From the IMG/VR virus record IMGVR_UViG_2695420646_000007: a stretch of DNA of 14,203 bases, one strand, 5' to 3'. The first letter of the stretch is position 1. Every line of letters begins with the position of its first letter. Of the stretch, positions 13,114 to 13,844 are shown piece by piece. Below the pieces are notes generated by a model that made no database searches, had not been told where the DNA came from, and worked only from the letters and a program-made list of their open reading frames with translations. The DNA is from a virus (Duplodnaviria; Heunggongvirae; Uroviricota; Caudoviricetes). Made by a program: the position numbers and the translations under genes.

Positions 13114-13844
13114 ATGCTATACATATGTTCTATCATTTTGGTGTTGAACTCGTTTGATGTCCGAATTGGTAAAGAAGATATTTTGTTTAAAAAAGGAAGT
13201 GCTGTTCTCATTGATTACAATTTAAAAGATTTTTTTCATCAAATATAGATCATGTAATGATCGTAGATGTTGAAGAAAAAACAGTTAATGATTTCTTTAA
13301 AAGCAACACACTCTCACCTTTTTCTGTAAGAAGGTTTTATCCGGCATACTTGATGGTGGAATGTGAAGATTTTTCATTGTTAAAGAACTTGATTGCATGC
13401 TTGAATTGTGATGGCAGAACTGTGGATTTTGTTAGAAATCAAATATCACTTGCATGTCTTGCTATCTTATCTTCAGAGAAAATAGTGCAAAGTTTTTTAT
13501 TTGGATGTCTTAATAGTTTAGGAAGTAAAGTTAAGGCTATTATTCACACGGATATATCTGCAGCATGGAGACTTTGTGATATATCTTCAAGACTGTATCT
13601 GAGTGAAAGTCTGTTAAAAAGAAAATTAAAGCACGAAGGCTTATCATTTAGTAAGTTAATTCTTGAAGAGCGAATGGTGATGGCGGAAAGCTTATTAAGC
13701 TACAATTTATATTCTGTTGGAAAAGTTGCTGAGATATGCGGTTATGAAAACACGTCATATTTTGTAAGTGTTTTCAGAAGGTATTTTGGTGTTCCTCCCC
13801 ATCAATATTCATCAAGATTTTTTTTAGAAAAAGACATGATGTAA
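13114..13844 (+). pseudogene. AraC/XylS-family regulator (AppY/GadX-like subfamily), split by a frameshift at a T7 homopolymer
   Basis: Frame 1: ATG 13114 to TAG 13246..13248, MLYICSIILVLNSFDVRIGKEDILFKKGSAVLIDYNLKDFFHQI. Frame 3 opens at 13215 (ORF track ATG 13257) and runs to 13844 with a clear AraC-type dual-HTH C-terminus. One extra T in the run at 13230..13236 would fuse them into a 243-aa protein. Surrounded by very AT-rich DNA. Confidence 0.65.

Follow-up and report, generated by a model that had tools for sequence, protein, structure and literature searches.

AppY, GadW, YdeO and GadX of Escherichia coli K-12 are AraC/XylS-type regulators of acid resistance and of anaerobic and stationary-phase genes. 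One of them, AppY, is encoded in a prophage, DLP12 (PMC10057817), with its gene sitting at the prophage end. Another set of described proteins comprises PatE, PsrA and PsrB of EHEC O157:H7, prophage-encoded AraC-like regulators that act as activators of gadE/hdeA and, by an indirect route, as repressors of type III secretion (PMC10877973, PMC8565820). With respect to the reading frame, a precedent is found in Shigella flexneri mxiE, which also encodes an AraC-family protein: its two frames meet at a run of T close to the 5' end, one additional U restores the protein, and this split form is the functional, expressed one (PMC1088944). A different use of homopolymers is made by the contingency loci of Neisseria, Haemophilus and Campylobacter, in which the length of a coding run sets the frame.

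The locus described here is contained in a 14,203-nucleotide stretch of viral DNA, the whole of which is referred to as the window. It encodes a regulator that resembles AppY, GadW, YdeO and GadX in its length class and two-domain layout, but is only about a third identical to them, and the copy under study is frameshifted at a run of seven T (T7). As in the case of AppY, the gene is prophage-borne, but it is found between the antiterminator gene Q and the holin gene rather than at a prophage end. As in the contingency loci, the length of a coding homopolymer sets the frame. Overall, the gene is very probably an ordinary pseudogene, frameshifted at a homopolymer, in a prophage that is itself decaying, and its T7 tract is a real, inherited and very common allele.

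Reading frames, protein family and prophage setting

The frame break is a deterministic reading of the sequence, with no statistical signal involved. Translation from ATG 13114 gives MLYICSIILVLNSFDVRIGKEDILFKKGSAVLIDYNLKDFFHQI (MLYICS...KDFFHQI), and the 3' part of the gene, from ATG 13257, is reported by gene callers as a separate ORF of 195 codons (195 aa). Addition of one T to the tract yields a single 243-codon ORF ending at 13844, in full agreement with the original prediction, the coordinates of which (ATG 13114, T7 at 13230-13236, stop at 13844) are exact (table 1). In the T8 alleles, the tract is read as GAT TTT TTT TCA (D-F-F-S). The window contains eight homopolymer runs of at least 7 nt, and the regulator gene itself has a second T8 run close to its end (AGA TTT TTT TTA), a T7 variant of which would end the protein at R-F-F; this run provides an internal control for the behaviour of the first. 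At the start of the neighbouring YbgA-family gene (11808-11815), an A7 run (ATG ATA AAA AAA CCT) is A8 in two relatives (L031 and L033), where the next base is also A.

Table 1. Coordinates of the regulator gene, its tracts and the surrounding features in the window.
Feature	Positions	Strand	Remarks
Antiterminator Q gene, left border of the cargo module	10553..10930	+	From annotation of identical relatives and the ORF list
Lipocalin-family gene, cargo module	11086..11610	-	
YbgA-family gene (DUF523/DUF1722), cargo module	11803..12762	+	
AT-rich intergenic region upstream of the regulator gene	12763..13113	+	31.6% G+C
Shine-Dalgarno-like AGGTGG	13103..13108	+	5 nt upstream of ATG 13114, read from the sequence
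Regulator 5' fragment, 44 codons and the frameshift-made premature TAG	13114..13248	+	TAG at 13246-13248, read off the sequence; PGAP start in relatives maps to 13114
T7 homopolymer, one base shorter than the ancestral T8	13230..13236	+	0 frame reads U_UUU_UUU
Regulator 3' part, -1 frame	13237..13844	+	Open from 13215; first ATG 13257; stop 13842-13844
AraC-type double helix-turn-helix DNA-binding domain	13584..13814	+	Residues 158-234 of the repaired protein
C replacing G, Arg-to-Ser in the DNA-binding half	13691	+	Marker defining the sub-allele of the window
Second T8 run of the same gene, six codons before the stop	13818..13825	+	Internal control
Remnant of the holin gene essD, 31 codons	14032..14127	+	Cut at 14123/14124; matches in other genomes end at 14123
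Terminal part of an IS66-family element that interrupts the holin gene	14124..14203		L025 and L026 match the window exactly as far as 14203 and then continue into IS66 transposase genes

Two Pfam models of the AraC/XylS DNA-binding domain identify the repaired protein well above their cut-off values (HTH_18, 53.1 bits against 33.6, E = 3.9e-14; HTH_AraC, 44.2 bits against 26.6, E = 1.9e-11). In BLASTP comparisons with K-12 proteins, residues 1-233 align with GadW (33% identity), AppY (32%) and YdeO (32%), with E values from 1e-38 to 1e-45, and GadX is 41% identical over the C-terminal domain only. An N-terminal motif, M-x-Y-I-C-S-I-I, is common to the regulator, AppY, GadW and YdeO. The best NCBIfam model is that of YdeO (NF007407), which covers residues 1-236 with a score of 126.6 bits; since the cut-off is 348, the protein is not a YdeO orthologue. 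From sequence comparisons, the regulator is thus placed in the GadW/AppY/YdeO/GadX subfamily as an orthologue of none of its members, and the initial description of the protein as 'AppY/GadX-type' holds at the subfamily level, with AppY, GadW and YdeO aligning over the full length and GadX in its C-terminal part.

The regulator gene and the intergenic region preceding it have the same low G+C content (31.6%), to be compared with 44.9% for the whole window. A promoter and terminator scan of this region returned none above chance, the promoter-like hexamer pairs upstream of the gene not exceeding chance. As judged from homology, the intact protein would likely activate host genes, for example those of the acid-resistance regulon. 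For such a T8 protein, PatE, PsrA and PsrB would be the best functional analogy, being likewise prophage-encoded and of the GAD type. No O157 genome was present among the megablast matches listed for the gene and its two sister groups.

A lambda-like prophage related to DLP12 carries the locus as a cargo ('moron') gene; the order of genes there is Q, lipocalin, YbgA, regulator and holin, so that the regulator is the last cargo gene. Many lambdoid prophages have the lipocalin/YbgA-family/AraC cassette between Q and the holin gene, and its regulator falls into three allele groups. Two of these are sister groups, 81% and 84% identical to the gene of the window and lodged in the same cassette. The gene is also carried by isolated phages: phage IdasGreatGrand has an intact regulator that is 98.4% identical to the repaired protein, and an 82% form is found in a series of induced lambda-like phages (the Lambda_ev series). 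Across the three allele groups, the dN/dS ratio is 0.23-0.26, indicating that the intact gene is under purifying selection. With an intact T8 gene in a viable phage and a dN/dS of approximately 0.25 for the protein family, T8 is the ancestral state of the tract.

The prophage of the window is defective: an IS66-family element interrupts essD, of which 31 codons are left. This junction in essD recurs in the E. coli sequences CP010238.1 and CYES01000016.1, so that the lysis cassette is indeed disrupted, and the 31-aa holin fragment is also present in a further relative (L026).

T7 as a real and recurrent allele

Homopolymers of 7-8 nt are classic sites of sequencing error, and the lone-genome T7 calls at the second T8 run, and those of M114 and GF131 at the first, might be errors of this type. 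The original prediction had accordingly listed, as one possible explanation, a sequencing or assembly error concealing a T8 tract and an intact gene. However, positions 3257-14203 of the window (10.9 kb) are 100% identical, with the T7 tract and the IS66 junction included, to CP010238.1 and CYES01000016.1, both of them E. coli assemblies independent of each other. The 195-aa product (P0029) recurs unaltered, with the private-looking Ser of the window, in 140 contigs (NCBI, ENA and Logan), and T7 is present in 232 complete genomes from many laboratories and sequencing platforms. An error at this position is hardly credible, and the suggestion is refuted for practical purposes. The whole window is contiguous in no RefSeq complete genome, and its relatives were located by exact protein look-up. 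In addition to the Ser product, this look-up found the Arg version of the 195-aa ORF in at least 1000 contigs, the full-length T8 proteins in at least 1000 and 486 contigs, and the T8 product with Ser in 4. PGAP labels the T7 copies 'frameshifted' and the T8 copies as intact proteins.

The comparison of T7 and T8 at orthologous loci, by which the original prediction proposed to distinguish its alternatives, shows that both states are common. The allele group of the window is carried by 583 of 5426 complete E. coli genomes. In exact searches with short queries, which are sound at 86-88 nt, T7 was matched in 232 genomes (86-nt query) and T8 in 240 (87-nt query), and exact T9 in none of the 5426. 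With 99-nt queries, the '>=99%' identity band also lets in one-base insertions; in the case of the T8 query for haplotype B (see below), this band held 13 records that are neither exact nor T9. An evenly spaced sample of 60 carriers gave consistent proportions (28 T8, 31 T7 and 1 T6). T6 was seen once (L003), as was T9, in NCTC11023 (L024), the copy of which is also split by an IS1 element. At the second T8 run, a T7 variant is found in 5 of approximately 580 carriers, in scattered complete genomes.

A T8 relative (L002) differs from the window over 3.7 kb by 2 SNPs and the tract. From this sequence and the 240 T8 genomes, it follows that intact orthologues exist and that the broken reading frame is set apart from theirs by the indel alone, as in a frameshift pseudogene. 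The SNPs of the cassette define five haplotypes on which T7 is found. Haplotype A includes the window, EC01 and 23AR0885. Haplotype B is that of an ST410 prophage integrated beside bioA, at the lambda attachment site; strain AMA1167 belongs to this sequence type (PMC5794949). The haplotype accounts for approximately 205 genomes. Haplotypes C and D are each represented by a single genome. That of C, GF131, has SNPs at distances of 47 and 112 nt from the tract; that of D, M114, has one at 3 nt, and an O7:H15 strain carries a T8 copy that otherwise matches it exactly. About a tenth of the carriers belong to haplotype E, whose SNPs lie 12 and 19 nt away from the tract.

The number of contractions cannot be read directly from these haplotypes because the gene recombines. 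The Ser SNP (13691 C) is found on two upstream haplotypes (13118 T/13149 C and 13118 C/13149 T), which implies recombination between prophages inside this 730-bp gene, and T7 on haplotypes A and B may consequently share one event. Since the Ser SNP recombines, the occurrence of all four combinations of Arg or Ser with T7 or T8, considered at one stage as proof of recurrent mutation of the tract, was dropped as an argument. The Arg-to-Ser change may predate the frameshift, as it is also found with T8. Haplotypes C, D and E are independent, given that the SNPs that distinguish them are only 3 to 112 nt from the tract, but the T7 calls in GF131 and M114, each a single genome, could be homopolymer assembly errors. 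On these considerations, T8 was shortened to T7 on two occasions at the least, and probably on four or more.

The sequence of events very probably began with replication slippage that shortened the coding T8 run to T7, as a consequence of which translation from ATG 13114 ends after 44 codons. The T7 allele was then passed on vertically and also moved between prophages by recombination, with the T8 run acting as a mutational hot spot on which the same contraction arose independently in other haplotypes. Once contracted, the tract is stable on epidemiological time scales, and further decay of the gene follows.

Stability of the tract and decay of T7 copies

Several of these observations may also be accommodated by a contingency locus, as raised in the original prediction, in which slipped-strand mispairing would turn T8 (ON) into T7 (OFF) and back again and make the regulator phase-variable. 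The length of the tract does toggle the frame, with T8 giving one ORF and T7, T6 and T9 being out of frame; T7 and T8 are nearly equally common; the contraction has recurred on several haplotypes; and copies with T8 and Ser exist alongside abundant copies with T7 and Ser. A lone T8 genome (1EC187) is also found in the otherwise T7 background of ST410. Its intact gene lies in the same prophage and chromosome context as that of the approximately 205 T7 genomes, and the sequences are identical over 20 kb apart from the tract. When 40 kb of flanking sequence is considered, 4 SNPs separate two ST410 T7 genomes, and 1EC187, which has no private SNP, falls at the node joining them. Thus, 1EC187 may be either ancestral (basal) or a revertant, and rare reversion of T7 to T8 may take place.

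Within clones, however, the tract is uniform. The ratio of approximately 205 T7 to 1 T8 genomes in the ST410-type prophage is matched by serial and outbreak isolates: Ec-042-T0, T5 and T20 are all T7, and the O6:H16 ETEC genomes are all T8. Hardly any tract departs from a length of 7 or 8, and the variation is almost entirely due to contraction. The tract is also interrupted in the sister groups, which read TTC TTT TCT (Phe-Phe-Ser, 81% group) and CTT TTT TCG (Leu-Phe-Ser, 84% group) at this position, and a 53% homologue has T6. Sporadic contractions are about as numerous at the second T8 run, and, because of this similar number of events, the first tract does not appear to be unusually mutable; it differs from the second only in that its contractions have been inherited by successful clones.

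In E. coli with intact mismatch repair, a run of 8 nt should change in length at a rate far below that of classical phase variation. Indel rates in this species rise exponentially with homopolymer length (PMC8510543), and U7 and A7 runs are under-represented in its genes (PMC4066793). The loci of Neisseria, Haemophilus and Campylobacter differ from the present one in all these respects: here, the tract is short (8 nt), is found in a mismatch-repair-proficient species, is not conserved in homologues, shows almost no diversity of length within clones and undergoes nearly only contractions. Phase variation of the regulator is therefore quite improbable, and this part of the original prediction is unsupported by the clonally stable, contraction-biased and unconserved tract and by the like behaviour of the second T8 run. 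A compound version may be envisaged, in which a prophage regulator of acid resistance or virulence would switch slowly and reversibly between T8 and T7, with the OFF state partly alive by -1 slippage and rare revertants selected in particular niches. We regard it as a very long shot; if true, such a slow switch would amount to slipped-strand contingency behaviour in a mismatch-repair-proficient enterobacterium.

The fate of the T7 copies also argues against a switch, in that T7 lineages gather further lesions. In haplotype E, codon 35 has become a stop (Y35*), 12 nt ahead of the tract, and an A5 run has lost one base, which introduces a second frameshift. Strain 53 combines T6 with a Lys-to-stop change, the ST410-type copy of strain '042' is interrupted by IS2, and that of NCTC11023, as already mentioned, has both IS1 and T9. 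In the copy of the window, no lesion was found beyond the frameshift. The original prediction had associated a plain pseudogene with a T7 fixed in all relatives and with accumulated secondary lesions. The secondary lesions are indeed present in several T7 lineages, but T7 is not fixed, given the 240 T8 genomes, and the window copy is free of additional damage. The lesion is nevertheless heritable, being common to relatives in hundreds of genomes, and it is already annotated in RefSeq as a frameshift; together with the secondary lesions, these properties support the designation as a pseudogene.

Possible residual products and consequences of the loss

An apparently broken gene may still be expressed if the frame is corrected during transcription or translation, and the case of mxiE, expressed via slippage on a U run (PMC1088944), shows that this may happen in a gene of the same family. 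For the T7 allele, a functional full-length protein would have to arise by -1 ribosomal frameshifting on U_UUU_UUU or by insertion of a U by the transcribing polymerase. The 0 frame reads GA[U UUU UUU], which places the slippery motif in the correct frame, and a -1 shift at the tract would yield exactly the protein sequence of the T8 allele. Furthermore, U_UUU_UUU is one of 18 heptamers that give more than 0.1% frameshifting in E. coli without stimulators (PMC4066793). On the other hand, there is no downstream stimulatory structure: the minimum free energy of the region is -11.3 kcal/mol (z = -1.34), and 21 of 200 shuffled sequences fold as well. The examples of efficient transcriptional slippage have runs of 8-9 or more (PMC1088944), as compared with 7 here. 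In contrast to mxiE, where the split form is the functional one, the split into two frames arose here from an intact T8 gene, and copies that have it continue to decay; T8 alleles, the viable phage and the sister groups all have a single ORF. Maintained recoding thus appears very unlikely. From the sequence of the tract, a low leak by -1 slippage on U_UUU_UUU is plausible and T7 would perhaps be an incomplete null, but nothing suggests that such a leak is maintained.

A truncated product could instead be formed by re-initiation at ATG 13257, only 8 nt past the premature stop (13246-13248). The resulting 195-aa protein would include the whole helix-turn-helix domain and might retain some activity. 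Isolated DNA-binding domains are active in some AraC-family proteins. The sequence preceding 13257 has, however, no Shine-Dalgarno motif, and the first 48 residues, which would be lost, contain the most conserved N-terminal motif of the subfamily. Nonsense and IS lesions within the 195-aa ORF in T7 lineages also argue against constraint on it, and an active re-initiation product is quite improbable.

With these alternatives weighed, the frameshifted pseudogene remains the preferred interpretation, and RefSeq already annotates T7 copies as frameshifted. In annotations, the appropriate label for the locus is that of a prophage AraC-family regulator pseudogene with a frameshift, rather than that of two ORFs or of an assembly error, and little follows beyond that. 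In ST410, an international high-risk clone, the gene is almost uniformly broken, which implies that any function of the regulator is dispensable there; we infer that its loss is neutral. More in general, the coding T8 run emerges as the dominant route by which the regulator is lost across E. coli, and the locus shows clearly, in natural genomes, how a homopolymer can drive prophage cargo to become a pseudogene.

Elsewhere in the window (2594-4217), the minus strand encodes a HipA-like kinase of 282 aa, whose gene adjoins that of the S24-peptidase (CI-like) repressor of the prophage; relatives have a gene for a DUF3037 protein next to that of the kinase. This second locus may be a toxin or defence module of the prophage.
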